This document shows, piece after piece, positions 14,251 through 49,117 of a stretch of 64,000 nt of DNA. The stretch comes from Candidatus Saccharicenans sp. (GTDB taxonomy: Bacteria; Acidobacteriota; Aminicenantia; Aminicenantales; Saccharicenantaceae), in the NCBI GenBank assembly GCA_030017715.1, contig JASEIU010000004.1, positions 139,456 through 203,455 on the forward strand, in the 5' to 3' direction. The position numbers were made by a program, and so were the translations under genes. The notes beneath the pieces were generated by a model. The model was not told the DNA's origin. It ran no database searches and was given only the letters and a program-made list of their open reading frames with translations. Positions within the stretch are counted from its first letter, which is position 1, and each line of letters starts with the position of its first letter.

Positions 14251-14335
14251 ATATTGAAATTGCCGCCGGAAAAGAATAAAATGCCAGTGTGAGCAACTTC
14301 AGGCTTACGAAAGTTATGGTCTCAGGAGTTATTCA

Positions 14336-14554
14336 ATGAAAGAAAAAGTGGAAGAAGTTCTTAACCGCATAAGACCGGCTCTGCAGGCTGACGGCGGAGA
14401 CGTCGAGCTGGTGGACGTGGTCGACGGTGTGGTCTCGGTCAGGTTGAAAGGAGCCTGCGGCGGCTGTCCCATGTCCCAGATGACCCTTAAAATGGGCATC
14501 GAGCGCCTGCTGAAAAAAGAAATACCGGAAATCAAGAGCGTCATTTCGGTCTGA
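14336..14554 (+). CDS. NifU-like (Nfu-type) Fe-S cluster carrier domain protein
   Basis: The motif ..[18 protein letters not shown].. matches the C-terminal NifU domain CxxC motif. The protein is 72 aa. Confidence 0.8.
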
Positions 14555-14586
14555 ATTTTTTCCTGGGTATCGGGAAGGAGGGTTCG

Positions 14587-15777
14587 GTGACAGGCTTCTA
14601 TGCCGACAGACAGGCGGCGGCTCCGGTCAGGCCGGAAGTGCTGGAGGCCATGCTGCCCTTTTTCTCGGAAAATTTTGGCAATCCCCAGAGTCTGCATTCA
14701 ACCGGGCAGAAGGCAGCCAAAGCTCTGCAGCAGGCCAGAGAGCAGGTGGCCAGGCTTATCAACTGCCAGCCGGAAGAAATCATCTTCGTTTCCTCCGGGT
14801 CAGAAGCTAACAACCTGGCCTTGAAAGGTCTGGCTCTGGCCAACCAGGCCCGGGGAAAAAAGGTCATTGTTTCCGCCATCGAACATATTTCGGTGTTGAG
14901 AGCGGCTAAATTTTTAGAAAAGCTGGGCTTCAGCACGGTGCAGGTCGCGGTTGACGGCCAGGGACTGGTTGACCCGGCGAAAGTGGCTGAAGCTATCAGC
15001 CCGGACACCGTTCTGGTATCGGTGATGATGGCCAACAACGAAGTGGGCACGATTGAACCGGTGGCTGAAATCGCCAGTCTCTGCCGATCGAAAGGAATCC
15101 TGTTCCACACCGATGCCGTGGCTGCGGCAGGAAATATTCCGGTGGATGTCAGGGCCAGCGGGTTCGATGCTTTGAGCCTGGCCGCCGACCAATTCGGCGG
15201 GCCGAAGGGAGCGGCGGCCCTTTATTTAAGGAAAGGAATAAAGCTGACCCCGCTGATCGACGGCGGAGTTCAGGAAAACAACCGCCGGGCCGGAACCGAA
15301 AACCTACCGGCCATTATCGGCCTGGGCAGGGCAGCCGAGCTGGCCCGGCTGGAGATGGAGGAAAAAGGCCGCCGGCTGACTGCCCTGAGAGACAGGCTTA
15401 TAAACGGAGTACTGAGCAGCCTGGATGAAATCCTCCTGACCGGTCATCCTGTCAGGAGGCTTCCCCATCAGGCCAGCTTCTGTGTCAGGTTCGTTGAGGG
15501 CGAGGCTCTGCTGCTGGGCCTGGACATGAATGGCATTCAGGTGGCCAGCGGTTCAGCCTGCACTTCCAGGTCTCTCCGGACCTCGCATGTTCTCACGGCT
15601 ATGGGACTCGACTCAGCTGTGGCCCAGGGCAGCCTGGTGCTCACCCTGCTGGACGGGACCCGAGAGGAACAGATAGAATATTTTCTGGAAAAATTTCCGC
15701 CGGTGGTCGGACGGCTGCGGGAAATGTCCCCGCTTTACACCAGGTATCTTCAGGAGAAGAAAGATGTACACCGATAA
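14587..15777 (+). CDS. cysteine desulfurase (NifS/IscS family)
   Basis: The active-site loop SGSACTS and the PLP-binding region are present. A GTG start is preceded by gggaaggagg. The 3' end overlaps the iscU-like gene. Confidence 0.9.
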   Translation: MTGFYADRQAAAPVRPEVLEAMLPFFSENFGNPQSLHSTGQKAAKALQQAREQVARLINCQPEEIIFVSSGSEANNLALKGLALANQARGKKVIVSAIEHISVLRAAKFLEKLGFSTVQVAVDGQGLVDPAKVAEAISPDTVLVSVMMANNEVGTIEPVAEIASLCRSKGILFHTDAVAAAGNIPVDVRASGFDALSLAADQFGGPKGAAALYLRKGIKLTPLIDGGVQENNRRAGTENLPAIIGLGRAAELARLEMEEKGRRLTALRDRLINGVLSSLDEILLTGHPVRRLPHQASFCVRFVEGEALLLGLDMNGIQVASGSACTSRSLRTSHVLTAMGLDSAVAQGSLVLTLLDGTREEQIEYFLEKFPPVVGRLREMSPLYTRYLQEKKDVHR

Positions 15778-16336
15778 AGTAATGGAACATTTTCTTCACC
15801 CGCGAAACGTCGGGACCATTGCTGACCCCGACGGCGTTGGGGAAGTGGGCAACCCGGTTTGCGGCGATATGATGACTTTTTACATAAAGGTGAAAGACGG
15901 CCGGCTGGAAGACGTTAAGTTTCAGACTTTCGGCTGCGGCGCGGCCATTGCTGTCAGCAGCCTGGTCAGCGAAATGGCCAGGGGCAGGACGCTGGAAGAG
16001 GCTATGAAGATAACCAATCAGCAGGTGGCCGAGGAACTGGGCGGTCTGCCGCCTCACAAAATGCACTGTTCCAATCTGGGAGCGGATGCCCTGCATAAGG
16101 CGATAGAAAATTATCTCCAGAAGCAGACCGGCCGGCAGGCTGAAGCCAATGAAGGAGGGAAACAGGCTGCCGCCCGGGAAGAACATCTGCACTGTCCGTT
16201 CTGCGACCTGGACCTGCCGGAGAATGTCCAGCTCTGTGCCCGCTGTCAGGTCAAACTGATCAGATGCGAGCATTGCGGCCAGTATAACCGTCAGGACGAA
16301 GACACCTGCCGCCACTGCGGGGCCGGGCTGGTTTGA
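15764..16336 (+). CDS. Fe-S cluster assembly scaffold (IscU/NifU N-terminal domain) with Cys-rich C-terminal extension
   Basis: The N-terminal scaffold motifs are GNPVCGDMM, FQTFGCGAAIA and HCSNLGADAL. The C-terminal extension carries CPFCD..CARCQ..CEHCG..CRHCG. Confidence 0.85.
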   Translation: MYTDKVMEHFLHPRNVGTIADPDGVGEVGNPVCGDMMTFYIKVKDGRLEDVKFQTFGCGAAIAVSSLVSEMARGRTLEEAMKITNQQVAEELGGLPPHKMHCSNLGADALHKAIENYLQKQTGRQAEANEGGKQAAAREEHLHCPFCDLDLPENVQLCARCQVKLIRCEHCGQYNRQDEDTCRHCGAGLV

Positions 16337-16412
16337 GAACGGTCGGTTACAGATCTTTCAGCGGAAAACCGGGCGGATTGCGGCCAGAATCAGGACTCAA
16401 GAAGGTTCAGAA

Positions 16413-17321
16413 ATGAAAAAAGAATGGCTGGTAGAAGAAATCGGCAGGCTGAAAAAAGAAAAACGGGCCGTCATTCTGGCTCATAATTATCAACCGGAGG
16501 AAGTCCAGGACCTGGCCGATTTTGTCGGCGATTCTCTGGAACTCAGTCGGAAAGCGGCCGAAGTTGAAGCCGAAATCATAGTTTTCTGCGGGGTTCATTT
16601 TATGGCCGAAACGGCCAAGATTCTGGCCCCGGGCAAAAAAGTCTTGTTGCCCGACCTCCGGGCCCGCTGTCCGATGGCCGACATGGTCAGCGGAGATGAC
16701 CTGCGCTGGATGAAAGAACAGCATCCGGGGAAAAAGGTCGTGGCTTACGTCAACACCACCGCCGAAGTCAAAGCCGAGACCGATGTTTGCTGCACTTCGT
16801 CCAATGCGGTTAAGGTGGTCAGCAGCCTGCCGGAGGCGGAAATAATATTTGTGCCCGACCGCAACCTGGCCGATTATGTCAGCCAGAAGACCGGAAAGAA
16901 ACTTTACATCTGGGATGGTTTTTGTCCGATTCATGAAGACTTCAGGGCCAGGCACATTGAGAAGATGAAAAAGAGTCATCCTGGGGCTGAAGTCTGGGCT
17001 CATCCCGAGTGCCCGGCGGAGGTGCGGCTGCTGGCCGACCGGATTCTGTCCACCGGTCAGATGATCAGGGAAGCTCCAAAATCTGAAGCCAGAGAAATCA
17101 TAGTGGCCACGGAGGTGGGCATTCTGCACCGGTTGAGGAAGGAAAATCCAGGAAAGAAATTTTATCCGGCCAGCGAAAAAGCTGTCTGCCCGAACATGAA
17201 GCGTATAAATCTTAAGAAAATTTATAAAACCCTGCTGCTGGAAAAACCGGAAGTAACAGTCGAGGCTTCCGTCGCCGACCGGGCCAGGGAGGCCATCAAC
17301 CAGATGGTGCGTTTTATTTAA
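16413..17321 (+). CDS. nadA: quinolinate synthase
   Basis: The N-terminus (ILAHNYQ..VQDLADFVGDSLELSRKA) and length are typical of NadA. Confidence 0.9.
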   Translation: MKKEWLVEEIGRLKKEKRAVILAHNYQPEEVQDLADFVGDSLELSRKAAEVEAEIIVFCGVHFMAETAKILAPGKKVLLPDLRARCPMADMVSGDDLRWMKEQHPGKKVVAYVNTTAEVKAETDVCCTSSNAVKVVSSLPEAEIIFVPDRNLADYVSQKTGKKLYIWDGFCPIHEDFRARHIEKMKKSHPGAEVWAHPECPAEVRLLADRILSTGQMIREAPKSEAREIIVATEVGILHRLRKENPGKKFYPASEKAVCPNMKRINLKKIYKTLLLEKPEVTVEASVADRAREAINQMVRFI

Positions 17322-17392
17322 GAAGATGGAATAAACGGGAACCCGCCGTTAGCATAATTAATTTTCAGGAATTAAAGCTCAAAGGAGGCCTG

Positions 17393-17896
17393 ATGAAAAA
17401 AATAACCCAATCCACGGTTAAAGAAGCTCTGGCGGGAGAAAGCCAGGCCCATCTCCGTTACAAGTTCTATGCTCTGAAAGCCAGACAGGAAAACCTGCCG
17501 AATGTTGCCCGGCTTTTCGAGGCCGCTTCTTTTTCGGAACAGATTCATGCCCTGAACCATCTTAACGTTCTGGAAGGTGAGGGCGGAACGGCCGACAATC
17601 TCGGTAAAGCTCACGACGGAGAAAATTTCGAGATAGAGGAAATGTATCCCGCTTATATTGCCGTGGCCAGAGAACAGGGCGAAAAGAGGGCGGCCACCTA
17701 TCACCAGTTTGCCCTGGCGGCCGAAAAAGTCCACGCCGCCCTGTATGCCCGGGCCAAACAGGCGGTCGGCCGGGGTCAGGACCTGGAACTGACGGCTCTG
17801 CACATTTGCTCCGTCTGCGGTTTTACCTTGGAAGGCGAAGCCCCTGACCGCTGCCCGGTGTGCGGCGCCTCCAGCGACCGGTTTGTTAAATTCTAA
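17393..17896 (+). CDS. rubrerythrin
   Basis: Diiron ferritin-like motifs (ESQAHLRYKFYA, EQIHALNHL) are followed by a C-terminal rubredoxin-like CSVCG..CPVCG. A good RBS (aaaggagg) precedes it. Confidence 0.9.
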   Translation: MKKITQSTVKEALAGESQAHLRYKFYALKARQENLPNVARLFEAASFSEQIHALNHLNVLEGEGGTADNLGKAHDGENFEIEEMYPAYIAVAREQGEKRAATYHQFALAAEKVHAALYARAKQAVGRGQDLELTALHICSVCGFTLEGEAPDRCPVCGASSDRFVKF

Positions 17897-25750: not shown

Positions 25751-27256
25751 ATGAAAATCATACTGGCCGGATATAATTTTGACGCTGAGGTAATAGAGGA
25801 ACTGAAGAGACATTGTCCTGAGCGCCAGGATGTTACTCCGGAGACGCTTTCGGCGGCCTACGCCCGTATCTCCCGCGACCCACGCCCGGTGGATGAGCTC
25901 AGAGCCGTGGCCCGGGCTGAAGTGGAAAGGGCCCGCCGTTCCAACCAGAATATAATTTTCAAGATGGGCCATCACTCGGTGGCCGAGCATGCCGTCTTCA
26001 ACTTCGACCTGATCGGCCTGAGCCGCCTGGCCATCGAGGAAGTCGAGCATTTCAGATTATGCTCTTACACTGAAAAGTCGCAGCGCTATATCACTCTGGA
26101 CGGGGACTATGTTCTTCCCGAGGAGATAAAGCAGGCCGGGCTGCAAGGAGTTTTTGCCGAAACCATAGAGATTCAGAACCAGGCCTATCGCTATTTTTAT
26201 GAGCGGCTGCGAGAGCACATTTTCGAGAAATACAAGGAGCAGGCCGCCAACCCTAAAAATCATCCCATCCTTGACGGCTGGGCCAAGGAAGATGCCCGCT
26301 ACGTGGTCAGCTTAGCCACCAGGGGTCAGCTCGGAATGACCGTTAACGCCCGTAACCTGGAGCTGATGATCAGGCGTTTTTCAGCCCGAAGGAACGCCGA
26401 AATCAGAGAGCTGGTCCGCCAGCTCCATGATCAGGCTAAAAAAGTAGCTCCCTCAATCATCCTGTTTACCGACCCCTCTTCTTATGAGGCAGAAATGATG
26501 GACAATGTGCGGGAGGAGGCTCTGCGGCTTCTGGCCGGCCGCAGGAAAGCAGCGGGCGGTCGCAAACAGCTGCACAAAATCCGGCTGGTGGAATTTTCCG
26601 AAAGAGGAGACGACCTTATAATTGCCGGCCTGCTGTTTTCCACCAGCGGACTTTCCTTCAAAAAAGCTTTGGAGGAAGTAGGCCGCTGGTCCGAAAAAAA
26701 GAAGCTCGACCTGGTGAAGAAAGTGTTTGAATACCTGGAGTTTTATGATTCGCCGCCGCGGGAGTTTGAAATGGCTTTTCTGACTTTTGACCTGGTGGTA
26801 TCGGCTTCCTGCTTTGCCCAGCTCAAAAGGCACCGGATGATGACCCTTCTGGTTCAGCCATACGACCCGGCCCTCGGGGTCACCGTTCCGCCCTCCATCA
26901 GAGAAATCAAAGAACAGAAGAAATTCAAAGAAATTATCAAACAGACTGAAAAGACCTGGCGGATTCTAAAAAAGAAAGCCGGCCCGGCGGCCGATTACAT
27001 TCTCACCAATGCTCACCGCCGGAGGGCGCTGGTGAAAGCCAATGTGCGGGAGCTGTATCATCTGTCGCGGTTGAGGGAAGATGCCACCGCCCAGTGGGAA
27101 ATAAGACAGGTAAGCGCAGCTATGTCAGCCCTGGCTCGTCGGGTTTTTCCTCTTACCGCCTGCCTTCTCGGCGGTAAGGACAGCTATCCGCAGCTTTATA
27201 AAAAACTTTTCGGACATCCGCCGAAGATGATGCCGCCTTCCCTCTTCTTTGATTGA
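25751..27256 (+). CDS. ThyX-like (flavin-dependent thymidylate synthase family) protein with two tandem ThyX-fold halves
   Basis: The first half has ..HSVAEHAVFNF..EVEHFRLCSYTEKSQRY... The second half has ..FDLVVSASCFAQLKRHRMM.. and ..NVRELYHLSRLREDATAQWEIRQV... Both resemble the ThyX RHR..S..SQRY region and helper helices. Confidence 0.6.
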   Translation: MKIILAGYNFDAEVIEELKRHCPERQDVTPETLSAAYARISRDPRPVDELRAVARAEVERARRSNQNIIFKMGHHSVAEHAVFNFDLIGLSRLAIEEVEHFRLCSYTEKSQRYITLDGDYVLPEEIKQAGLQGVFAETIEIQNQAYRYFYERLREHIFEKYKEQAANPKNHPILDGWAKEDARYVVSLATRGQLGMTVNARNLELMIRRFSARRNAEIRELVRQLHDQAKKVAPSIILFTDPSSYEAEMMDNVREEALRLLAGRRKAAGGRKQLHKIRLVEFSERGDDLIIAGLLFSTSGLSFKKALEEVGRWSEKKKLDLVKKVFEYLEFYDSPPREFEMAFLTFDLVVSASCFAQLKRHRMMTLLVQPYDPALGVTVPPSIREIKEQKKFKEIIKQTEKTWRILKKKAGPAADYILTNAHRRRALVKANVRELYHLSRLREDATAQWEIRQVSAAMSALARRVFPLTACLLGGKDSYPQLYKKLFGHPPKMMPPSLFFD

Positions 27257-27282
27257 CCGTTTCTCAGAAGCTTCCGGAAATT

Positions 27283-27927
27283 TCAGGCCGAAACACCCTT
27301 TCTCTTACGGGCAAAGCCGATAATCGCCAGAATAACAGCTACGGCCAGGACTGCGTACAGAATGTTAATGGTCTTTTTCTTTCTGGCAATTTCGCTCTCC
27401 ATCTTCTGAGCCAGGTCGGCCATATCCTTATTCAGAGAAGCAATTTTAGCCTGGCTGGCTTCGTTCTCCCTTCGCAGACTCTCTTCACTGGCTTTAAGGG
27501 CCGAAATTTCATTGTTCCTGGCTTCGATCTCTGCTTCCTTTTGCTTGACTTCGGCCCGCAGGCGGGAAATCAGGTTGTTAAGAGCCCTGACTTTTTTAGA
27601 GGAATCAGCCTCGGTTTTCTGAGCGGCAGCGATCAAATCATTTTTCTCTTTTTCCAGGTCAACAATTTTGGCCTTCAGCGAATCCAGATCTCCTTTGAGC
27701 TGATTGTTTACGGCCCGGGCTTCTTCCAGAGCTTTCTTGGTTTCGGCCAGTGATTGTTCCAGCTGGGCTTTTTCGGACTCAAGGGTTGAAACTCTTGCCT
27801 GGACCTGTGAAAGCTCGTCTTCTACCGTCACCAGTCGCTTCTTGGCGGCGGTGGAACATCCCGCTGCAAGGAAGACTATCAATAAGCTTGTTGTAAATAG
27901 CACTCGGGAAAAAGAATTTCTTTTCAT
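27283..27927 (-). CDS. coiled-coil lipoprotein with C-terminal membrane anchor
   Basis: The lipobox is LAAGCS after a signal peptide. A long heptad-like coiled coil is rich in E/K/A/L. The C-terminal TM helix is ILYAVLAVAVILAIIGF. Confidence 0.55.
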   Translation of the reverse strand: MKRNSFSRVLFTTSLLIVFLAAGCSTAAKKRLVTVEDELSQVQARVSTLESEKAQLEQSLAETKKALEEARAVNNQLKGDLDSLKAKIVDLEKEKNDLIAAAQKTEADSSKKVRALNNLISRLRAEVKQKEAEIEARNNEISALKASEESLRRENEASQAKIASLNKDMADLAQKMESEIARKKKTINILYAVLAVAVILAIIGFARKRKGVSA

Positions 27928-28114
27928 TTCTCCTCCTCATTTATCTAATTTTATTTATCGGCTCGGTTAACCTTGGTAAGCAGTTGCTAATAAACCAGGA
28001 TTATTCTAAAACGCTAAACGGCGGCCTGTCAAAATAAATTATAAGCCTGGGATAAGATATTTTTTGTTGCTTAGGTGCTGCCCGCACATAGGAGTGTAAC
28101 CATAATTAACCCCC

Positions 28115-28143
28115 TTGATTTTTGTTGGTAAAAGAAGTTAAAT
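28115..28143 (+). promoter_or_regulatory. candidate promoter (TTGATT-17 nt-TTAAAT) for the controller/R-M operon
   Basis: The hexamers were read from the sequence, 46 nt upstream of ORF 28190. Confidence 0.3.
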
Positions 28144-28191
28144 TCGGTAATATGAAAATGGTGTCAGCCATTGGCGTTTAGGATAAACTTT

Positions 28192-28203
28192 GTATTGTAA
28201 TAC
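28192..28203. promoter_or_regulatory. imperfect inverted repeat GTATT-gt-AATAC abutting the controller gene start (candidate C-box/operator)
   Basis: 5-bp arms with a 2-bp spacer, 5 nt upstream of the ATG at 28208. No SD is visible before this ATG. TATAAT overlaps the start codon. Confidence 0.35.
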
Positions 28204-28207
28204 TATA

Positions 28208-28429
28208 ATGTCAAACGAAAAAACAAAAATAGCCAAAAACACCAAGAAGCTGCGGAAGCAACGGGATTTGTCGCACGAAAAGTTATCCAAACTTGCCGAT
28301 ATTTCACATAATATGATAATCAAAATTGAGTCCGGGGCGATTCAAAGCCCGACAATAGAAACAGCCCAAAAAATCGCCAGGGCGTTAGGGGTTACTTTGG
28401 ACGATTTAATGAAAGAAAATCATGACTAA
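28208..28429 (+). CDS. XRE-family helix-turn-helix transcriptional regulator (putative R-M controller, C-protein-like)
   Basis: The 73-aa product has a classic HTH (LRKQRDLSHEKLSKLADISHNMIIKIESGAIQSPTIETAQKIARALGV). Its stop overlaps the methyltransferase ATG by 8 nt. ORF 28190 begins at an upstream TTG; ATG 28208 is preferred. Confidence 0.8.
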   Translation: MSNEKTKIAKNTKKLRKQRDLSHEKLSKLADISHNMIIKIESGAIQSPTIETAQKIARALGVTLDDLMKENHD

Positions 28430-30905
28430 AGAACAAAAGTTTTACAAGGCATTACAGGATGTATTCATCGGCGCCAGGATTGAAGGCGAAGGCGGTTTTG
28501 TCAATTTGATGAGGATTAAATCAAGTTACTACCGTCAAATTGAAGATATTCTTAAAAAAGATATTGAAACCGCACTAAGTAGCTACCCGGCATTCAGGGA
28601 CGAACTTTTTGACAAGCTCTATTCATTTTTCAGCCGTTACTTTACGGAAAGCGGATCAATATATTTCAACCAAACGCCTTTTCATAATAATATTTATGAA
28701 AAAATTTATACCGATGAAAAGGATGTTATTCTCTTTTGGAAAACGCAGATGCTCTACTATGTCAAAACCGACCGGATTTTTAAGAGTTTGCCGGTTGAGT
28801 TTGACGGTTTCAAAATTTACTTTGACGCTTCAAAAATAGAAAACAAAAAAGCCAATGAAAAACGCTCGCTTGTTTTTGAGCTGAATGATGTCAAGGAAGA
28901 CGGCACGATTGTTTTCGGTGTTTTATATTCTGAAAAAGGGACAAAAACAAACCAAGACGAGATATTAAAAGCAATAAAGAGAAAAGGCATTGCCATTACC
29001 GAAGACCAATTGGAGCGTGCCTTTAGGGTTTTTGAAAAGCAAAGCGAGGTTGATTTCTTTATTAACAAAAATGCTAAAGCATTTTTGCAGGAACAGTTTA
29101 AGCTCTGGAGTTATCAGTATTTCTGGGAAGGGGCCAAAGAATGGAGTGCAGATAGAGTTAATCAACTGCAAAATCTCAAAAACATTGCTTTTAAGATTAT
29201 TGATTTTATCTCGCAATTTGAAGACGAACTGGTAAAAATCTGGAACAAGCCGAAGTTTGTAAAAAACTCAAATTATGTGATTACGCTGGATAGAATAATA
29301 AGTCAAATCTCAGAAGGCAAAAATCAACACTTGGAATTGATTGAGAAAATTTTTAACCATCCTAATATAAATGAGCAAATAAGGGAATGGGAAGAACTTG
29401 GGATAATAGAAGAAAAGTCAATAGTTAAAAATAAATTTTCAAAATTCAGAGGGAAAGAATTAAAGTTGATAGATGAGATATTTGAAAACACACTGGAAGG
29501 CAAGAGACTTAAAAAAGAATACGTACACCTGCCAATTGATACTAAGTATTTCAAGGATTTGGAGTTTCAGATACTGAGCCAGTTTAATGATTTGGATAAG
29601 TCATTAGACGGCTGGCTGATAAAAAGCGAAAACTACCAAGCGCTAAATACAATCCTTCCAAAATTCAAAGAAAAAGTGCAGACAATTTATATTGATCCGC
29701 CATTTAATTTAGATTCTTCTGACCAGTTTTTATATCGCACAAATTACAAAGACGCTAACTGGGCAACTTTGCTTGAAAACAGATTAAGAATTGCGAAAGA
29801 TTGGCTGAATGAAAAAGGAAGCATTTTTGTAAGGTGCGATTCAAACGGAAATTGGATAGTAAGGTTTTTAATGAACGATGTTTTTGATAACAATTTAAAG
29901 AATGAAATTGCTGTTAAAAGAACCCGCACATTGAAAGGGGAGAGAGGGCGTTTTCATACAGCGTGGGAATCTCTTTATTTCTACGCAAAATCAGAAAACG
30001 CAATTTTTAATGGTTTTAGGAAATTGAAACCAGAAAGCGAATGGCAATGGGTAGAAATGCACTTACCTGGGACTAGAAAAGACGAAGATTTACTTTATAG
30101 AAACTTTTTTGGAAAAAGACTAAAAGCACCGGAAGGACGAAGATGGGCATTAAGTCAGGATGCCTTGGATGATGCTATTTCAAAGGGATTGGTTAAAATG
30201 GATGAACAAACTGGAATGCCCAAATTCCTTACAAAATGGGAAACGCTCGGTTCTAACTGGACAGATATTTCTGGATATTCCCCAGCGCATGGTTTTACAA
30301 CAGAAAATTCAGAAGAATTATTACAGAGGGCAATAGAATCTACTTCTAATAAAAATAGTTTGGTTCTTGACTTCTTCCTTGGCTCTGGCACAACAACAGC
30401 CGTAGCTCATAAACTTGGTAGAAAATGGATTGGCGTTGAGATGGGAGAGCATTTCTATAGTGTAGTTTTGACGAGAATGAAAAAGGTCTTGGCTTATGAT
30501 AAAAGCGGGATTTCAAAAGAAGTCAAAGAATATCAAGGCGGCGGGTTTTTCAAGTATTATGAGCTGGAGCAATACGAGGAGGCGCTGGCAAATTGTAAAT
30601 ATGAAGATGGTGATTTATTCAATGCGCCCGGCAGAAGTCCGTACCAGGAATATGTCTTTATGAAAGATGAAAAAATGCTCAAGGCGTTGGAGATTGATTA
30701 TAAAAAAGGGAAAGTCAAAATTGATTTATCAAAACTCTATCCGAACATAGACATTGCCGAAACATTGTCTAACCTGACAGGAAAATGGATTAGACAAATC
30801 AAAAGTCAAAACTTAAAAATCAAAAGTGTGGTGTTTGAGGATGGCAACGAAATTGATATTGAAAACCTTGATTATAGACTAATTAAGCCATTGATTTGGT
30901 GGTAG
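28422..30905 (+). CDS. beta-class N6-adenine/N4-cytosine DNA methyltransferase (Type III Mod-like) with ~420-aa uncharacterised N-terminal extension
   Basis: Motif IV TIYIDPPFN (aa ~425) precedes motif I LVLDFFLGSGTTTAVAHKLGRKWIGVEM (aa ~650). A ~220-aa putative TRD lies between them. This order (IV before I) is diagnostic of beta-class amino-MTases such as Type III Mod. Confidence 0.85.
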   Translation: MTKEQKFYKALQDVFIGARIEGEGGFVNLMRIKSSYYRQIEDILKKDIETALSSYPAFRDELFDKLYSFFSRYFTESGSIYFNQTPFHNNIYEKIYTDEKDVILFWKTQMLYYVKTDRIFKSLPVEFDGFKIYFDASKIENKKANEKRSLVFELNDVKEDGTIVFGVLYSEKGTKTNQDEILKAIKRKGIAITEDQLERAFRVFEKQSEVDFFINKNAKAFLQEQFKLWSYQYFWEGAKEWSADRVNQLQNLKNIAFKIIDFISQFEDELVKIWNKPKFVKNSNYVITLDRIISQISEGKNQHLELIEKIFNHPNINEQIREWEELGIIEEKSIVKNKFSKFRGKELKLIDEIFENTLEGKRLKKEYVHLPIDTKYFKDLEFQILSQFNDLDKSLDGWLIKSENYQALNTILPKFKEKVQTIYIDPPFNLDSSDQFLYRTNYKDANWATLLENRLRIAKDWLNEKGSIFVRCDSNGNWIVRFLMNDVFDNNLKNEIAVKRTRTLKGERGRFHTAWESLYFYAKSENAIFNGFRKLKPESEWQWVEMHLPGTRKDEDLLYRNFFGKRLKAPEGRRWALSQDALDDAISKGLVKMDEQTGMPKFLTKWETLGSNWTDISGYSPAHGFTTENSEELLQRAIESTSNKNSLVLDFFLGSGTTTAVAHKLGRKWIGVEMGEHFYSVVLTRMKKVLAYDKSGISKEVKEYQGGGFFKYYELEQYEEALANCKYEDGDLFNAPGRSPYQEYVFMKDEKMLKALEIDYKKGKVKIDLSKLYPNIDIAETLSNLTGKWIRQIKSQNLKIKSVVFEDGNEIDIENLDYRLIKPLIWW

Positions 30906-32404
30906 GTATGGTAAAATTTAATCTATATAAAATTTATCCCGGTCAGCGAGAAAAACTTATAGAGAAGCTTAATTCTGTGGGGCTTACTAAGATAGGCAGT
31001 AAGAATATAGACGGTTTTTCTCTAGATTTTTATTTTTCAGACGAACCCGACTCCATTGATATTTGGTGGACTGATATTTATAAGGAATTTTTCGGAGAAG
31101 TAGAGAAGCCAAAAAACAAAATTTACTTCGCAACCCTACTTGTATATAATACCCAAATTGTTTATGCGGTTAGTCTTGGCAAGTCACATTTTTATTTAAA
31201 ACACTTTTGCGATGGTGATTTCGGGCTTAATTTAGCGGAAAGAATCGCCGACGAGATAAATCCAAAAATGAAAAATTCAAAGTTTTACAAAAGCCGTAAA
31301 AACAAGATTATTACAACCTATCAGGAAGGTAGCGGAATTGATTTTGATAGCGGAGAATCACTCCATTATTTGCGAGCTAAAACGATCGATAAAGACAATT
31401 GGGGTAAAACTGCAAGTTTTGGACATTCAGCTCAATTTAGTATTGAGATTAAACCCGAAGATCTACCAGATTTTATAAAAAAGATTGAAGAAACTCTAAA
31501 ACAAAAATCACGAATAAAATTGCCAAAGGTAATAGTTGCGCGGGATGAAGAAACGAAAAATAAACTTGATAATTTACTCGCCAGGGTTTTAATGGGATCG
31601 TCCCAATCATTTACGGTGCAAGAAAGTGATATTACCCTATCGGGTGTAGATTTTATATTTTCTGACCAATATGAATATAGCTTTTATTTGAGGGGAGATC
31701 GCGATTCTCAGACTGATAAGGGAGAACTTACATTAGATCGGCTGAGGCGGTTTATTTCAGAAAAAAATATCAATCTAGAAACACAACTTAACGATGTGAA
31801 AGTAAAAGTCCACAATGAGTTTGGCAGAGATTTTTCTGTTTCGCTTAAGGAGACGTTGGACTTTATAGACGAAAAAGAACGATATTGTCTTATTGACGGT
31901 AAGTGGTATCAATTTAACCAATCATATTTGGATTTCTTAAAAGAGGAAGTTGATAGTATTGATTTTAAGGAGCAGGAGGAAATCGGCGATAAGACAGAGC
32001 AGGAATTCAACCAAAGAAAAGGCCGAGAAGGATTTGTTAATTGTGATAGATTAAATGAATCTTTGTGCAAAAAGTATAAGGTGGAAAAGGTAGATTTGTA
32101 TAAAGAAAAGATACTCCACTTTGTTAAATTTGGATCTCCGAAAAATATGAACTATGCTGTGGATCAAGCAATCAACACAGTTAAGCTATTGCAAAATAAC
32201 CAAAGCAAGATTCAAATCAATGACGAAGAACAAGGCGTTGAAACGATTTGTTTGTGGCTTGTTTTTGACAGAAAACAGAAACTTAACAAACTTTCAGAAT
32301 TAAACTCATTGATATTTCATATGAAATTAGCCGATTGGAAACGAATAGTGCAAAATGCCAGATATAAACCAATGATTTATGTAAGTTATAGAAAAAATGT
32401 CTAA
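30896..32404 (+). CDS. uncharacterised 502-aa protein embedded between mod-like and res-like genes (no recognisable catalytic motif)
   Basis: The start overlaps the mod stop (TTG at 30896 or ATG at 30908 after ggtggtagg). The stop overlaps the res-like ATG (32397) by 8 nt. Composition is AT-rich like its neighbours. No P-loop, HxH or clear nuclease motif was seen; LWLVFDRK near the C-terminus is only weakly (D/E)xK-like. Confidence 0.7.
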   Translation: MVVGMVKFNLYKIYPGQREKLIEKLNSVGLTKIGSKNIDGFSLDFYFSDEPDSIDIWWTDIYKEFFGEVEKPKNKIYFATLLVYNTQIVYAVSLGKSHFYLKHFCDGDFGLNLAERIADEINPKMKNSKFYKSRKNKIITTYQEGSGIDFDSGESLHYLRAKTIDKDNWGKTASFGHSAQFSIEIKPEDLPDFIKKIEETLKQKSRIKLPKVIVARDEETKNKLDNLLARVLMGSSQSFTVQESDITLSGVDFIFSDQYEYSFYLRGDRDSQTDKGELTLDRLRRFISEKNINLETQLNDVKVKVHNEFGRDFSVSLKETLDFIDEKERYCLIDGKWYQFNQSYLDFLKEEVDSIDFKEQEEIGDKTEQEFNQRKGREGFVNCDRLNESLCKKYKVEKVDLYKEKILHFVKFGSPKNMNYAVDQAINTVKLLQNNQSKIQINDEEQGVETICLWLVFDRKQKLNKLSELNSLIFHMKLADWKRIVQNARYKPMIYVSYRKNV

Positions 32405-35342
32405 ACTTTATTTACAAAACATCATAGATGATATTTCCTTTGAAAACTTGCCGGTCAAGTGGCAGGGGTTTGATTTTAGCCGATTTTCAAAAGACAAGAC
32501 ACTTTTTGATTTTCAAAAGAAAGGTTTGCAAAACGCGTTGAAAACATTGCATCTGTATTTTAAGGATAAAAACGGAGATAAAAAAGCATTATTTGATCAC
32601 TACAAATTTAATGGCCTGGAAGAAGATTTTGATTATGATTTAAAGAAAAAACAAGATAGCAAGATTGCAAAATATCTGTTGGAATACGATAAAGATTACC
32701 CAGTCATCGATAAAAAAATTTCCTTTGTTCATTTTATTAACCGGATGAGTTTTTGGATGGCCACTGGTTCGGGTAAAACGCTGATTATAGTTAAGCTGAT
32801 TGAGCTTTTGGGTAAGCTGATTGCCGAAAAAGAGTTGCCGGCGCGCGATATTCTCTTTTTAGCCCACCGCGATGATCTTTTGGACCAGTTCAAAAACCAT
32901 GTTGAAGAATTTAATAGCTTTAACTTTGACAGAAAGATAAACCTTAAAAGTCTGCGGGATTACGAAAACGTTAAGCGCGATAATCCTTTGCCGTTTACCA
33001 AAAATGGGATTAATGTTTTTTATTACCGTTCCGACTTGATTTCCGATGAACAGAAAGAAAAAATCGTTAACTTTCAAAACTATGACAACAGCGGGCGGTG
33101 GTATATCCTTTTAGACGAAGCCCATAAGGGCGATAAAGAAGACAGCAAACGACAAATTTTATACTCCATACTTTCAAGAAACGGATTTTTGTTTAATTTT
33201 TCTGCGACATTTACCGACCCAAGGGATTTTGCGACCTGCGCTTTTAACTTCAATCTTTCAAGGTTTGTAGAAGAAGGTTACGGCAAGCATATTTATGTGT
33301 CTTCGGCCGAGATCAGCGGATTTCGCGGCCGAGGCGCTTTTTCTTCCATTGAAAAACAGAAAATCGTTTTAAAAACACTTTTGCTTTTGACCTACATCAA
33401 TAAATATTTTGAAGAAATCAGAAAGCTTAATAATTCCCTATATCACCGCCCGCTTCTTTTAACTCTCGTTAATTCCGTGGATGTGGAAGAATCCGACCTG
33501 GAGTTATTTTTTAGGGAATTAGAAAAGGTAGCGAGAAATGAAATTAGAGCGGATTCGCTTAAAATAGCAAAAGACGAACTTATCCAAGAATTTCGCCATA
33601 ACCCCAAATTCGTATTTGAAGAGTTGGAGTGCCCCATAGACGGTAATTTGGTTTCAAAATTAGATTATCAGGATATTTTGAAATATATTTTAAATGCAAA
33701 CAGGCCTGGTAAGATTGAAGTTTTGAAAATCCCCGGGAATAGGCAAGAATTGATTTTCAGGTTAATGACGTCTCATAGACCGTTTGCGTTAATTAAGATT
33801 GGCGATATTTCCAGCTGGTTGAAGAACAAACTTGAAGGATATGAGATAAATGAAAGTTTTGAGAACGAAAGCTATTTTAAGGCCATCAATTGCGATGATT
33901 CCGACCTAAATATTTTAATGGGCTCTCGCTCCTTTTACGAGGGTTGGGATTCTAACCGACCAAACCTGCTTTTGTTTGTGAATATCGGAGTTGGAAGCGA
34001 CGCAAAGAAATTCGTTCTGCAATCGGTGGGCAGAGGTGTGAGAATAGAGCCGCAAAAAAACATGAGGAAACGGTTACAAAATTTGTACAATGCTGGGATT
34101 ATAAAGGATCAGTTATTTGAGAAAGTGAAAGATTTGATTTTGCCGATTGAGAGCTTGTTTGTTTTTGGCACAAATGCTGAAAACCTGAAGGAAATAATTG
34201 CAACGCTGAAAGCAGAGAAGCAAGATGAAAATTTAGGCGACGCCTTTATTTTGAATCCGGAAGCGCAAAGACATATTCTTTTGGTGCCAGTTTATAAAAC
34301 GGCCGAGAGAATATTTGCCGAAGAACAAGTCCCGCAAAAATACGCTATCAGCCTCGAAGATTTTGAGTTGACTTCTAGATTTTATGAATTTTTAGGAGAC
34401 AAAATAATTTTGGCTAAATATGATTGTGAAGTAAATGTTTTGAAGAAGGCAAAAGATAGTTTTGAAGAAAAAGGAAGATATTATGATTTCAGCGAAAAGA
34501 ACTCTCTTTTTGATCCCGAGCTGATTCTTGGACGCATTTTTGATTATCTTGGAGTTAAAAGCAGGGAATTTGAGAAGTTTAAGAAGTTGGAAAACGAGAT
34601 CGTGCATTTCAGAAAGATTAGATTCAGCGCCATCGAAAAATACGAGGAAATAAAAAAGAAAATAGAAGTAATGAAAGAGTATCCTGAAAAGAAAAAGGAA
34701 TTAAAAGCTAAATATGGAAAGATTCCAGAAGAAGAATATAACAAGCAGTTAAAACTGTTTGAAGAAGCAGGAAAGTACGAAGTAAAAAATCAAAAAATAA
34801 AAATCAAGTATTTGGCTAATCATTACTATCTTCCGGTGATAATTTCAGAGACAGAAAAAATTGACTATCTTAATCATATTATCAATGTTGAGAGCGAAAT
34901 AAAATTTATTGAGGAGCTGGAAGAATATCTTGCCAGGTCCAAAAATGTATTTACGCAATTTGACTGGTGGATGTTTTCAAAACTTGACCAAACGCTGGAT
35001 GAAGTTTTTATTCCTTATTACAATCCGAAAGAAAACAAGATGGCCAATTTCAAGCCGGACTTCATTTTTTGGATGCAAAAAGACAATCGCTATTTAATTT
35101 TATTTGTTGATCCCAAAGGAACCGAACACGCGGATGGATATAGAAAGATTGACGGCTATTCAAGGATATTTGAAATTGAAAAAAATGGACAAAGGCAAAA
35201 TAGAGATTTTTCATACGGTAGATTTACAATAAATGCAAAATTATTGCTCAAGCCCGCGAAAGGTGGTATTGACAGGGTTCCAGAACCTCAAAGGAAATAC
35301 TGGTTTGACAACTTTGATGATTTTGCGGGCAAAATCAGTTAA
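32397..35342 (+). CDS. SF2 helicase-nuclease (Type III Res-like restriction subunit)
   Basis: Helicase motifs are I (FWMATGSGKT, aa ~120), II (ILLDEAHKG, aa ~250), III (FSATF) and VI (LQSVGRGVRIEP, aa ~545). The C-terminal PD-(D/E)xK-like endonuclease motif is FKPDFIFW..LILFVDPKGTEH (aa ~885-908). The domain order (helicase N, nuclease C) matches Type III Res. Confidence 0.85.
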   Translation: MSKLYLQNIIDDISFENLPVKWQGFDFSRFSKDKTLFDFQKKGLQNALKTLHLYFKDKNGDKKALFDHYKFNGLEEDFDYDLKKKQDSKIAKYLLEYDKDYPVIDKKISFVHFINRMSFWMATGSGKTLIIVKLIELLGKLIAEKELPARDILFLAHRDDLLDQFKNHVEEFNSFNFDRKINLKSLRDYENVKRDNPLPFTKNGINVFYYRSDLISDEQKEKIVNFQNYDNSGRWYILLDEAHKGDKEDSKRQILYSILSRNGFLFNFSATFTDPRDFATCAFNFNLSRFVEEGYGKHIYVSSAEISGFRGRGAFSSIEKQKIVLKTLLLLTYINKYFEEIRKLNNSLYHRPLLLTLVNSVDVEESDLELFFRELEKVARNEIRADSLKIAKDELIQEFRHNPKFVFEELECPIDGNLVSKLDYQDILKYILNANRPGKIEVLKIPGNRQELIFRLMTSHRPFALIKIGDISSWLKNKLEGYEINESFENESYFKAINCDDSDLNILMGSRSFYEGWDSNRPNLLLFVNIGVGSDAKKFVLQSVGRGVRIEPQKNMRKRLQNLYNAGIIKDQLFEKVKDLILPIESLFVFGTNAENLKEIIATLKAEKQDENLGDAFILNPEAQRHILLVPVYKTAERIFAEEQVPQKYAISLEDFELTSRFYEFLGDKIILAKYDCEVNVLKKAKDSFEEKGRYYDFSEKNSLFDPELILGRIFDYLGVKSREFEKFKKLENEIVHFRKIRFSAIEKYEEIKKKIEVMKEYPEKKKELKAKYGKIPEEEYNKQLKLFEEAGKYEVKNQKIKIKYLANHYYLPVIISETEKIDYLNHIINVESEIKFIEELEEYLARSKNVFTQFDWWMFSKLDQTLDEVFIPYYNPKENKMANFKPDFIFWMQKDNRYLILFVDPKGTEHADGYRKIDGYSRIFEIEKNGQRQNRDFSYGRFTINAKLLLKPAKGGIDRVPEPQRKYWFDNFDDFAGKIS

Positions 35343-35510
35343 TTTACAAAGGACGGAGTATTTGGCAAATCTAAATACGAAAAAATATGGGTGCGAGCCG
35401 GGTGCGGCTCTCTACCCGTCGGGGCCGAAATGCTTGCACAAAAAAAGTCCCCATTGGGTTCAGTAATCGCGGGCTTTATAATTTAGGAGCCGTATCGAGC
35501 TTAAGAAGGT

Positions 35511-35852
35511 ATGATTATAGAAAATTATTCGTTTGGTCGGATGGTTATAGGCGGGAAGTCCTATACTGCTGACCTGATTATAATCGGAGACGAAATCTTC
35601 CCCAACTGGTGGCGCCGGGAAGGTCACTCTTTGTGTCTGGAAGACCTGGGCCCGGTTTTGGCGGCCAGACCTGAGGTTCTGGTTATCGGGACCGGTGCTT
35701 ATGGAGCGATGGACGTTCCTTACGAAACGGAGAGATTTCTGGAGGAGCGAGGAATAGAAGTTATCTGGAAACCGACCGCCGAAGCAGTAGAAATATTTAA
35801 CAGGCTGACCGGGAGGAAAAAAGCCGCCGCTGCCTTTCATTTGACCTGTTGA
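35511..35852 (+). CDS. Mth938-like (DUF498) domain protein
   Basis: The 113-aa product contains ..GGKSYTADLIIIGDEIFPNWW..VLVIGTGAYG... GC-rich codon usage resumes here. TATAAT and an RBS lie upstream. Confidence 0.6.
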   Translation: MIIENYSFGRMVIGGKSYTADLIIIGDEIFPNWWRREGHSLCLEDLGPVLAARPEVLVIGTGAYGAMDVPYETERFLEERGIEVIWKPTAEAVEIFNRLTGRKKAAAAFHLTC

Positions 35853-36021
35853 ATCTTAAAGACCGTTGAAGTCGACTTCTCAGAACCGGGGATTTTTCTG
35901 TTTTGATTGCCGGGGCAACCAATCAACCAGGGAAATGTATCCGATTCCGCAGTCGGCGGGCTTCATGGGTTGAGGCAGGCCCTCGGTGGTTTCCTTACGC
36001 TCACGGCCTGTTAACCGGGGC

Positions 36022-37485
36022 TCACTTCACTGATTTAATCTTCGGGTGATAATTGCTATGACGCACCATCCTGACGACTCTGCCCGATTGATCACGTTCG
36101 AAGACCACTTCTTCCCCGAGGGTATCGTCATCGCGGAGGCGTCTGAAAGTGTCGGCTTCAATGTGCCGAAGCAGCGTCAGCCCCTTCGCCGGATTGTCGG
36201 ACGGCAGACTGACCAGAGCCAGTTTACCCTGCCAGGGAAGGACTACGGTTTCACCCCACCAGGGTTGAGCATCATAATAACCGGCATAGTCTTCAAGATT
36301 AACAGCCGGGTCTTCAGCCCCTTCTTTTTTTGGGGCGGCTTTTTTGAGGATCTCCCGGAGGCCCCTGGCGTATTTTTCCGGTTCCGTTCCAGAGGCATTA
36401 ATCATCACGACAAAGGCCTGTTTCTGGCCGGGGTCAATCATCAGGGTGCTTCTGTATCCGGGGCAGGAACCTCCATGTCCAACCACTGTCCTGCCGTCCA
36501 TCTCATAAACGGAAAATCCCAGGCCCCAGGAAGTTTTCCAGTCCGGATCCATCCAGTGAACCCGGTGCATTTCGCACAGGGTTGGGGCTTTAAGAACCTC
36601 TTCCCCGCCTCTGGACAGAAGGCGGAATTGCCAGGAAGCAAATCTGGCCAGGTCCAGGACGGTGGAGGAAAATCCGGCTGCCGGTTTGATCCCTTCGGCC
36701 TGGAAAAGCGGCAACCTTTCCCGGGTGCCATTTCTGGTGAGAAAGCTGTACCCGGTGGCCAGCCTGTTTCTCCACAGTTCTTTGGGGAGATAGGGGCGAG
36801 TGTCTTGCAGGCCGAGCGGTTTAAGGATTTTTTCCTGGATGTAATCATCGTAGGATTGTCCTGACAATTCAACCACAATCTCGCCCAGGAGGCTCATTCC
36901 AAGGTTGCTGTACTGAAAATAAGTCGATGGCGGGTAGAGGGTTTTTTGACTTCCGAGTTTTTCTCTGAGCTGCTCTCGGCCGGGAAAAATAAAATCCGGT
37001 TTGCTCCAGTATGGATAATCAGACTCGCGGGGCAAACCTGAGGAATGGGTTAAAAGCGAACGGATGGTAATGGGTCCGCTGTCCGGGTACTGCTGTTTGA
37101 TGTCAAACCAGGGCAGATGATCGCTCACCAGGTCGTCCAGCCTGAGCCGGCCTGCGTCGCGAAGCTGCATGATGGCCACCGAGGTAAACAGCTTGGAGAT
37201 CGAACAGATGCTGTAGATTGTATCCGTTGAAGCCTTAACTTTTTTCTCCAGGTCAGCCAGACCGTAAGCTCTGGCAAAAATTATATCCTGATCTTCCACC
37301 ACAGCTACTGACATACCGGGCAGACGTTCATAATCGCGCTGAGCCTCCAGCCAGATGTCAATCAGCCTTAAGGCTTCGGTATAAACAGCCTGGCTGCTGG
37401 TTTTATTCTGGGCACTAATTCCGTCAGGGAAGCTTAAAATAATGAGTAAGAATAGAAAAAAGCCCCATAAACACTTTCTTTCCAT
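36022..37485 (-). CDS. secreted serine hydrolase of the beta-lactamase/PBP4 (class C-like) family
   Basis: The S-x-x-K motif (SICSISKLFTS) and a YSN motif are present. The signal peptide is MERKCLWGFFLFLLIILSF. The start is taken at the ATG preceded by GGAGG; ORF 37530 is a longer in-frame alternative. Confidence 0.8.
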   Translation of the reverse strand: MERKCLWGFFLFLLIILSFPDGISAQNKTSSQAVYTEALRLIDIWLEAQRDYERLPGMSVAVVEDQDIIFARAYGLADLEKKVKASTDTIYSICSISKLFTSVAIMQLRDAGRLRLDDLVSDHLPWFDIKQQYPDSGPITIRSLLTHSSGLPRESDYPYWSKPDFIFPGREQLREKLGSQKTLYPPSTYFQYSNLGMSLLGEIVVELSGQSYDDYIQEKILKPLGLQDTRPYLPKELWRNRLATGYSFLTRNGTRERLPLFQAEGIKPAAGFSSTVLDLARFASWQFRLLSRGGEEVLKAPTLCEMHRVHWMDPDWKTSWGLGFSVYEMDGRTVVGHGGSCPGYRSTLMIDPGQKQAFVVMINASGTEPEKYARGLREILKKAAPKKEGAEDPAVNLEDYAGYYDAQPWWGETVVLPWQGKLALVSLPSDNPAKGLTLLRHIEADTFRRLRDDDTLGEEVVFERDQSGRVVRMVRHSNYHPKIKSVK

Positions 37486-48706: not shown

Positions 48707-48779
48707 GCCAGCGTAGCTCAGCCGGTAGAGCAGCTGATTTGTAATCAGCGGGTCGGGGGTTCGAATCCCTTCGCTGGCT
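48707..48779 (+). tRNA. tRNA-Thr (anticodon TGT)
   Basis: A 73-nt cloverleaf was folded by hand. The acceptor is GCCAGCG/CGCTGGC, the D-arm GCTCAGCCGGTAGAGC, the anticodon stem GCTGA/TCAGC with loop TTTGTAA, and the T-loop TTCGAAT. Confidence 0.85.
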
Positions 48780-48822
48780 CAGAAATAGAAAGCAGGCCTG
48801 GCCTGATAGGGAAGACCGGTAT

Positions 48823-48905
48823 GGGCAGGTACCAAAGTGGCCAAATGGGGCGGGCTGTAAACCCGCTGCGGAAACGCTTCGGAGGTTCGAATCCTTCCCT
48901 GCCCA
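48823..48905 (+). tRNA. tRNA-Tyr (anticodon GTA), class II with long variable arm
   Basis: An 83-nt fold. The acceptor is GGGCAGG/CCTGCCC, the anticodon stem GCGGG/CCCGC with loop CTGTAAA, the long variable arm CTGCGGAAACGCTTC, and the T-loop TTCGAAT. Confidence 0.85.
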
Positions 48906-48913
48906 TTTTTGAT

Positions 48914-48986
<73 letters not shown>

Positions 48987-49005
48987 TTCTAAGAACTGAA
49001 GTTAA

Positions 49006-49078
49006 GCCCAAGTAGCTCAGTTGGCAGAGCACGTCCTTGGTAAGGACGGGGTCACCAGTTCAAATCTGGTCTTGGGCT
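49006..49078 (+). tRNA. tRNA-Thr (anticodon GGT)
   Basis: A 73-nt fold. The acceptor is GCCCAAG/CTTGGGC, the anticodon stem CGTCC/GGACG with loop TTGGTAA, and the T-loop TTCAAAT. Confidence 0.85.
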
Positions 49079-49117
49079 TTTATAAAAAATTTGCCTGGCT
49101 CCTAGGAGGTAAAAGAG

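Follow-up and report, generated by a model that had tools for sequence, protein, structure and literature searches.

A putative cargo slot between mod and res of a Type III restriction-modification operon, and its DUF6119 guest

What does it mean when an extra gene stands between the methyltransferase gene (mod) and the restriction gene (res) of a restriction-modification (R-M) operon of Type III: a new subtype, or a guest? The question is raised by a 64,000-nucleotide stretch of DNA from Candidatus Saccharicenans sp. (contig JASEIU010000004.1, positions 139,456 to 203,455 of the forward strand; hereafter the window), in which four intact and tightly packed open reading frames (ORFs), all on the plus strand, fill an AT-rich island:

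28208-28429, plus strand: helix-turn-helix (HTH) controller gene, 73 aa, XRE/HTH_3
28422-30905, plus strand: Mod gene, 827 aa
30908-32404, plus strand: ORF2, the DUF6119/TIGR04141 cargo gene, 498 aa (a mechanical ORF call begins it at TTG 30896)
32397-35342, plus strand: Res gene, 981 aa

A first-pass annotation, made from the sequence alone, had noticed the extra gene between mod and res, which is indeed there, and had taken its product for a protein with no recognisable motifs and the whole for a three-component Type III variant or a distinct defence system. Neither of these last two views survives: ORF2 matches DUF6119/TIGR04141 well above the curated cut-offs, the position that it occupies is frequently empty or otherwise filled in sister operons, and DUF6119 is mostly found elsewhere. 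The island is a horizontally acquired Type III R-M operon under C-protein control (HTH-mod-res), its acquisition having been correctly anticipated. Its mod-res junction appears to be a swappable cargo slot, and DUF6119 would be, with a probability of roughly three in four, an autonomous guest with a defence or abortive-infection role that is most likely nuclease-based.

The mod-res junction in sister operons

The evidence that carries this reading is a census anchored on Res, comprising 80 metagenome loci whose Res is 71-83 % identical to that of the window and of which 67 show both the Mod C-terminus and the start of Res. Among these 67 sister operons the junction is empty in 20, holds DUF6119 in 8 and holds other cargo in 39, proportions that are not population frequencies because the census was anchored on the loci nearest the window Res. 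ORF2 is therefore an optional embedded gene and not a subunit that defines a subtype. Where the junction is empty, res follows mod at once, with a gap of -2 to 24 nt; the window has a cargo gene of 1.5 kb at this point. The inserts measure 0.5-4.4 kb, every inserted ORF lies on the operon strand, and the other cargo falls by Pfam and PADLOC into about 20 unrelated families at the same junction, those identified being toxins and established or candidate defence genes:

RhuM-Fic, operon strand, 18 loci (PADLOC PDC-S23, 7.6e-124)
Family of ~250 aa, operon strand, 6 loci (L078, L130, L131, L132, L141, L142; positions 2018-2764 in L141), with no Pfam, PADLOC or PHROGs match
Bro-N, operon strand (Pfam/PADLOC scan)
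Fic_N-Fic, operon strand (Pfam/PADLOC scan)
Trypsin-like peptidase, operon strand (Pfam/PADLOC scan)
DUF3800 in three types, operon strand (DUF3800/PDC-M04A)
M78 peptidase, operon strand (Pfam/PADLOC scan)
DarT-DarG, fused, operon strand (Pfam/PADLOC scan)
AAA_13 ATPase, operon strand (PDC-S06, 1e-75)
PHP-ABC ATPases, operon strand (Ppl, 7e-47), at two loci paired with a Schlafen/AlbA_2 protein
AAA_14-DUF4143 with an extra methyltransferase, operon strand (PDC-S01)
475-aa protein in L090, operon strand (phrog_30194 over its full length, 3e-109, function unassigned)

Further cargos without a family assignment also occupy the slot. What stays constant is its two edges, which in the window are the following:

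30816-30905, plus strand: mod-3′ junction element, covering the final ~90 nt of mod up to ...ATTTGGTGG-stop; putative left homology arm
32397-32516, plus strand: res-5′ junction element, covering the opening ~120 nt of res (ATGTCTAAACTTTATTTACAAAACATC...); putative right homology arm

The mod 3′ end is kept in all 67 sister loci (...GATTATAAAyTnATTAARCCnTTnATTTGGTGG-stop), the res 5′ end is likewise kept in every one (ATGTCTAAACTnTATTTACAAAACATC...GATATTTCTTTTGAAAA), and cargo falls exactly between the two elements, usually a few nucleotides from each. The TGGTGG with which mod ends is spaced from the start of whichever gene follows as a Shine-Dalgarno sequence would be, and this conserved motif would hand any cargo ready-made translation signals.

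Cargo does not follow the phylogeny of its host operon. Cargo types are interleaved in a neighbour-joining tree of Res; Res is 99.9 % identical between an operon with a three-gene cargo (L125) and an empty one (L127), and 95.3 % identical between a DUF6119 carrier (L070) and an empty operon (L069); the median Res identity is 81 % among DUF6119 carriers versus 80 % among all pairs; and the Res nearest to that of the window comes from an empty operon. From the tree and the pairwise identities it follows that cargo state is uncoupled from Res phylogeny, and the same data speak against DUF6119 having been acquired once and then inherited vertically along with Res.

Additional copies of the junction elements, detected with an nhmmer profile in 17 of 85 loci, lie mostly between or beside stacked cargos. 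In L001 the order is mod-3′, DUF6119 and res-5′, followed by mod-3′, M78/DUF4411/RhuM-Fic and res-5′; analogous layouts with junction remnants occur in L125, L129, L133 and L112-114, and in all of these loci the extra mod-3′ copies lie between the stacked cargos. Extra res-5′ copies flank or separate cargos in L001, L095, L100, L118 and L129. In three of these (L095, L100 and L118) a partial res-5′ copy stands between the end of mod and RhuM-Fic and the true res 5′ end comes after RhuM-Fic, and in L075 and L144 a second res-5′ copy lies directly upstream of or inside res. Such patterns suggest that the mobile units of cargo are delimited by the mod and res ends, and these units would be swapped, gained, lost and stacked between sister operons by homologous, occasionally unequal or illegitimate, recombination at those ends. 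An integron-like cassette platform is not what is seen: neither within nor beside the window operon is there an integrase or recombinase, and what is repeated is coding sequence from the mod and res ends themselves, as homologous or illegitimate recombination would have it. Cargo appears to be packed tightly enough for co-transcription and translational coupling with mod and res, and would probably be expressed together with them.

The mod-res junction thus reads as a variable cargo slot in a very widespread and unusually conserved Type III family, the proteins of which are 65-84 % identical across phyla and in archaea. Protein identity is about 80 % among its members from Acidobacteriota, Patescibacteria, Ignavibacteria, Bacteroidota, Phycisphaerae, Elusimicrobia and Nitrospirota and from archaea.

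DUF6119: family, contexts and predicted nuclease domain

ORF2 belongs to Pfam DUF6119 (PF19614; 8.6e-30, 104.3 bits against a cut-off of 27) and to NCBIfam TIGR04141 ("sporadically distributed protein"; 1.2e-22, 80.1 bits against a cut-off of 35), and its homologues carry the source names 'DUF6119 family protein' or 'TIGR04141 family'. At E ≤ 1e-3 the family comprises 761 clusters among 1.84 billion representatives, nearly all of 500-550 aa and unfused. ORF2 has hundreds of full-length homologues in very different phyla, and at ~80 % identity Res clusters far outnumber DUF6119 clusters. Literature searches on DUF6119 and TIGR04141 returned no functional study; never having been described as a Type III accessory, DUF6119 cannot literally be counted as a known one.

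The genomic contexts were surveyed from ORF2 outwards, in 61 genome loci and in contigs fetched for four homologues. Co-localisation of ORF2 homologues with mod and res, which the first-pass annotation had named as a check, holds for the closest clade and for the 8 sister operons described above, and fails for about 50 of the 61 genome loci, where DUF6119 occurs with no relative of the window Mod or Res. Among these 61 the full HTH-Mod-DUF6119-Res arrangement recurs only in L009 (Paceibacterota) and L010 (Zixibacteria), with a partial instance in L008. DUF6119 is solitary in Leptolyngbya and Manganitrophus, lies 22-26 bp past a Type I hsdR in Legionella and Thermobacillus, and elsewhere follows an N6_Mtase + Type_ISP_C methyltransferase or a MerR-ResIII helicase. 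In L030 it is enclosed by a Type III Mod of canonical type (TypeIII_RM_meth + N6_N4_Mtase) and a ResIII protein; that DUF6119 is 41 % identical to the one in the window, and the Mod/Res pair around it is only remotely related to the window's. In L001 and L144 it is intact beside a truncated or frameshifted res. DUF6119 is an autonomous module, independent of Mod and Res.

No gene is its constant neighbour. Clustering of the ±4 neighbours yielded lineage-specific synteny only, which disposes of a constant DUF6119 partner, and PADLOC and Pfam scans of 108 neighbours found no recurring family, the hits being a scatter of CBASS cyclase, QatC/D, Gabija, SoFic, DRT and Type I REase, together with integrases and recombinases. 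A plasmid or phage origin was likewise set aside, since no more than 2 records from plasmids and 3 from phages match, with identities of 22-27 %. Two local arrangements may be recorded here. In L001 (Thermodesulfovibrio thiophilus, 9490-17497) res survives as 5′ stubs, a 43-aa ORF and a 94-aa ORF (Res aa 3-59), and the genes downstream encode a 1124-aa PLD-SNF2 helicase protein and a methyltransferase-endonuclease of the Eco57I/TaqI_C type; this R-M operon now forms the centre of a larger defence island. In an Enterobacterales clade (L053-L056, L058, L063; 27-29 % identity to the window protein) DUF6119 is preceded by co-directional proteins of 92 aa, 462 aa (radical-SAM) and 370 aa, with an 86-aa protein in four of the six loci, and the set could constitute a lineage-specific multi-gene system together with DUF6119.

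The C-terminal third of DUF6119 is predicted to be a PD-(D/E)xK-like nuclease domain. Residues 340-498 modelled alone give a predicted local distance difference test score (pLDDT) of 91.9 and a predicted template-modelling score (pTM) of 0.87, and in the model residues ~340-498 adopt an alpha-beta-beta-beta-alpha-beta core of the restriction-endonuclease-like fold. Across a 60-sequence alignment that reaches down to ~21 % identity, the C-terminal 159 aa are invariant at only five positions:

31997-31999, plus strand: E364, at the start of a helix in the model
32084-32086, plus strand: E393
32093-32095, plus strand: D396, directly before a strand in the model
32126-32128, plus strand: K407, inside the next strand in the model
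32165-32167, plus strand: Q420, in the following helix in the model

Two residues before K407 the usual acidic position is held by Phe405, so that the active site would be a variant one, with its second acid supplied by E393 or E364. Conserved residues in the N-terminal part are H94-F-Y, R112, K122 and G149-E150. Foldseek comparison of the full-length model with the PDB gave no match at E ≤ 0.001, and a profile search of PDB sequences gave nothing usable. The modelled fold and its invariant residues suggest nuclease activity, and the slot that it occupies suggests a role in defence.

The host operon: Type III identity, control and acquisition

That the operon is a controller-linked, Type III-like mod/res unit had been proposed from its motifs, and profile matches to HTH_3, N6_N4_Mtase, ResIII and the PADLOC MTase_III and REase_III models bear this out. 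Mod matches Pfam N6_N4_Mtase over aa 419-680 (1.1e-36) and the PADLOC MTase_III profile PDLC03638 over its full length (2.6e-279); Res matches Pfam ResIII over aa 114-273 (1.7e-19) and SWI2_SNF2 (5.3e-09), its match to PADLOC REase_III being partial (aa 283-561 only, 1.1e-25). The motifs listed for both proteins are all present, in the stated order:

29694-29705, plus strand: Mod DPPF (motif IV), aa 425-428
30375-30395, plus strand: Mod FLGSGTT (motif I), aa 652-658
30426-30443, plus strand: Mod WIGVEM, aa 669-674
32763-32780, plus strand: Res TGSGKT (motif I of a superfamily 2, SF2, helicase-like motor), aa 123-128
33114-33125, plus strand: Res DEAH (motif II of the same motor), aa 240-243
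33201-33209, plus strand: Res SAT (motif III), aa 269-271
34020-34043, plus strand: Res QSVGRGVR (motif VI), aa 542-549
35055-35063, plus strand: Res PDF, aa 887-889, candidate part of the C-terminal PD...D-x-K nuclease motif
35106-35117, plus strand: Res VDPK, aa 904-907, candidate part of the same nuclease motif

Motif IV, then a target-recognition region, then motif I is the order of a beta-class N6-adenine methyltransferase, as Type III membership demands of Mod; an N-terminal SF2 helicase-like ATPase followed by a putative C-terminal PD-(D/E)xK domain is the order it demands of Res, which is not an HsdR fragment. The Res helicase region and C-terminal PDF...(D/E)PKG align with the Res of the canonical pair in L030, some homologues bear the Joint Genome Institute (JGI) name 'type III restriction enzyme', and the protein is 100 % identical to one from a Candidatus Saccharicenans metagenome-assembled genome. 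Res has no NCBIfam match and no usable match in a profile search of PDB sequences. Mod and Res would together form a Type III enzyme.

The N-terminal ~420 aa of Mod, described in the first reading as an unknown domain, do lack a Pfam match, even in newer precomputed annotation, but a known Type III Mod profile in PADLOC, derived from REBASE, has the region as a constant component. Over aa 1-410 (28422-29651) it is 65-80 % conserved across many bacterial phyla and Archaea (Aenigmatarchaeota, Nitrososphaeria). Some variants, covering 81-91 % of the 410-aa query, carry DUF559 (PF04480, a Vsr-like endonuclease). Matches to the window Mod break near aa 331-366 in many sister operons, and in L136 and L137 an unmatched segment of ~420 nt lies at this break, which may be the insertion point. 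One further locus (L077, 1302-6195) carries two complete mod genes in tandem, with differing central regions, ahead of one res (HTH-mod-mod-res), and has two mod-3′ junction copies.

The HTH protein matches Pfam HTH_3 (1.3e-16) and, in PADLOC, Control_protein (1.1e-10) and capH (3.4e-12), the scores for capH and for RstR-type repressors being as good as that for Control_protein. The same HTH gene stands ahead of mod in sister operons. Its upstream region holds the following:

28100-28207, plus strand: left island border and upstream control region, with a promoter-like pair and a palindrome
28125-28130 (TTGGTA) and 28148-28153 (TAATAT), 17-nt spacer, plus strand: weak sigma-70-like pair, the hexamers below the promoter-scan threshold
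28192-28203, plus strand: palindrome GTATTGTAATAC, directly before the HTH start, a candidate operator (C-box)

When the upstream regions of 21 sister operons were aligned, L071, L072 and L074 were found to keep the promoter-like stretch and the GTATTnnAATAC palindrome; the upstream sequence of the others differs from this type. These elements may act as promoter and operator, and the HTH protein probably autoregulates the operon, the palindrome at 28192-28203 being a candidate site.

Compositionally the island is as distinct as had been claimed, with a guanine-plus-cytosine (GC) content of 0.354 over 28100-35400 versus 0.531 for the remaining window; GC per kb is 0.34-0.38 across 28001-35000 and ~0.50-0.58 on both flanks. 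The AT-rich copy contrasts with its 53 % GC host, and no mobility gene adjoins it. Housekeeping genes border it, those for PolX and ThyX at one end and those for a beta-lactamase-fold protein, a PALP enzyme and TyrRS at the other. None of the four window proteins shows decay, each being full length relative to its homologues. The first-pass annotation had the genes tightly coupled. Such packing is confirmed by two 8-nt overlaps, of the HTH stop with the Mod ATG (ATGACTAA) and of the ORF2 stop with the res ATG (ATGTCTAA), and by a 2-nt gap; the overlap it drew between Mod and ORF2 exists only if ORF2 begins at TTG 30896. The start sites of sister genes disfavour this TTG. All sister DUF6119 genes begin MAKFNLYKI at an ATG 1-5 nt past the mod stop, and because of this equivalence the window protein (MVKFNLYKI) almost certainly starts at ATG 30908, 2 nt past the mod TAG; mod and ORF2 are therefore closely adjacent and do not overlap.

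At the island borders, tRNA genes, an integrase and flanking direct repeats were sought and none was found; there is no integrase or recombinase within or beside the window operon, and an Rfam search of 27000-36500 identified no RNA family. Directly upstream (25751-27256) lies a gene whose 501-aa product contains two stretches of ThyX (Thy1) and resembles a flavin-dependent thymidylate synthase in tandem or duplicated form. A cluster of five tRNA genes, in the order Thr-TGT, Tyr, Gly-TCC, Thr-GGT and Trp, occurs at 48707-50613, well outside the island and unassociated with it.

Competing readings and known systems

On the preferred reading DUF6119 would ride in the R-M operon, act alone and add a second layer of immunity. 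Several results weigh against this. Neither PADLOC nor PHROG yields a significant match for DUF6119, which is also absent from PADLOC-DB v2; neither DUF6119 nor PF19614 nor TIGR04141 appears in the text or the 11 supplementary files of the study of embedded defence genes discussed below; and its N-terminal two-thirds (~340 aa) have no assignable fold. Recombination at the junction is deduced from sequence patterns, with no recombinase at the window and no recombinase or mobility gene at the island borders, promoter and terminator scans of the region did not rise above shuffled expectation, and the census was anchored on the 80 loci most similar to the window Res. An obligate three-component (plus controller) Type III variant, with the middle protein as a required subunit or accessory, would account for the four-gene order and its overlaps being kept in at least 11 loci of different phyla, and for the same sandwich in the second Type III pair, that of L030. 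It is nonetheless barely credible when in 20 of the 67 sister operons nothing separates mod from res and in 39 the slot holds other genes, when Res is 95 % identical between a DUF6119-carrying and an empty operon, and when DUF6119 mostly lacks a Type III partner. A looser dependence is conceivable, in which DUF6119 serves as a PrrC-like guard, latent under Mod/Res (or HsdR) and freed as a nuclease when a phage anti-restriction protein disables R-M. Its presence between mod and res in two Type III families that are unrelated to each other, its positions past hsdR, after the Type_ISP_C methyltransferase and after the MerR-ResIII helicase, the 8-nt overlap of its stop with the res start, and the acceptance by the slot of the PDC-S06 ATPase, a member of AAA_13, the Pfam family that contains PrrC and RloC, would all suit such a role. 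Even so, a guard is unlikely: most DUF6119 genes have no adjacent R-M gene, whereas prrC is always R-M-linked (PMC3458546); DUF6119 is intact where res is truncated or frameshifted; it has no ABC ATPase or anticodon-nuclease domain; and about 20 unrelated cargos in one slot favour a permissive landing site over a specific partnership.

If the slot is permissive, its occupant might bring no benefit at all, being an addiction-type toxin or mobile nuclease gene that persists as a selfish passenger in an insertion-tolerant, often-transferred operon (a 'genomic sink'). The small and sporadic nature of the family, the integrases and recombinases among its neighbours, its rare presence on phages and plasmids, its predicted nuclease-like domain and the toxin-type genes, such as Fic and DarT, that share the slot are in keeping with this. 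Yet no cognate antitoxin or immunity gene accompanies DUF6119, validated defence systems (DarTG, Ppl) share its slot, as do PADLOC defence candidates, and its architecture, length and catalytic-type residues are kept across 21-90 % identity, implying purifying selection on function; selfish carriage is therefore quite improbable. A more ambitious version of the preferred reading, less likely than not, takes the slot for a dedicated, integrase-free cassette-exchange platform with portable arms, and DUF6119 for a new nuclease effector with a novel N-terminal sensor, maybe licensed by R-M failure. Were this true, the platform would shuffle and stack defence and toxin genes, DUF6119 among them, and spread them between bacterial phyla and to archaea, with each cargo automatically gaining the expression signals of the operon.

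Returning to the reading of DUF6119 as an autonomous guest, its implications are several. The presence of an additional gene within an R-M operon is no ground for naming a new R-M subtype. One precise slot with at least 20 alternative cargos amounts to a compact natural catalogue of defence candidates, which implicates DUF6119/TIGR04141 as a nuclease-type candidate with five named residues and exposes others, for example the 250-aa family. The operon family merits study as a vehicle of defence-gene spread.

Comparison with known systems places the locus more exactly. Like EcoP1I and EcoP15I, the window has a beta-class N6-adenine Mod with its target-recognition region between motifs IV and I, a Res with an N-terminal SF2 motor and a putative C-terminal PD..(D/E)xK nuclease, and mod-then-res order within one operon. 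It differs in the extra conserved ~420-aa N-terminal region of Mod, which lacks a TypeIII_RM_meth domain, in having no sequence match to any solved structure, EcoP15I included, and in its upstream HTH controller gene and the cargo gene that parts mod from res. C proteins are classically described for Type II systems; the window resembles C-protein-controlled R-M in that a small HTH_3 gene heads the operon, overlaps the next gene, matches Control_protein and has a palindrome, the candidate operator, directly before its start codon, but here the controller sits on a Type III operon. The classical second-line effector within a restriction locus is PrrC of the Type Ic EcoprrI hsd operon (PMC1484252, PMC12707154), with which DUF6119 shares the placement of a nuclease-type gene, in its case a predicted one, inside an R-M operon. 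As with RloC (PMC3458546), R-M linkage of DUF6119 is only occasional; unlike with PrrC, it is the exception and not the rule, and there is no sign that the R-M enzyme silences DUF6119. The predicted PD-(D/E)xK domain and the lack of an ABC ATPase, AAA_13 or anticodon-nuclease match place DUF6119 outside the PrrC/RloC type.

The closest precedent is guilt-by-embedding, in which genes nested in Hma, BREX, DISARM and Type I R-M loci led to 145 predicted candidates (Payne, Hughes, Fineran & Jackson, bioRxiv 10.1101/2024.01.29.577857). ORF2 conforms to it, lying between defence genes in the same orientation, being neither a mobility nor a housekeeping gene, and having homologues that also occur non-embedded; its slot-mates match PDC/HEC families and known systems (PDC-S23, PDC-S05, PDC-S06, PDC-S01, PDC-M04A, PDC-M36A, Ppl and DarTG). 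When the literature was searched for insertions of genes between mod and res, phasevarion papers alone came up, and the published set of embedding systems does not include Type III, to which the present slot extends the picture. It differs further in that the site in the window's family is a single, nucleotide-precise junction with conserved arms and with remnants between cargos. The embedding of defence genes in multi-gene defence loci is already known; what is new here is the exactness of the slot at the junction, the remnants of that junction between cargos and a nuclease-type candidate not flagged before.

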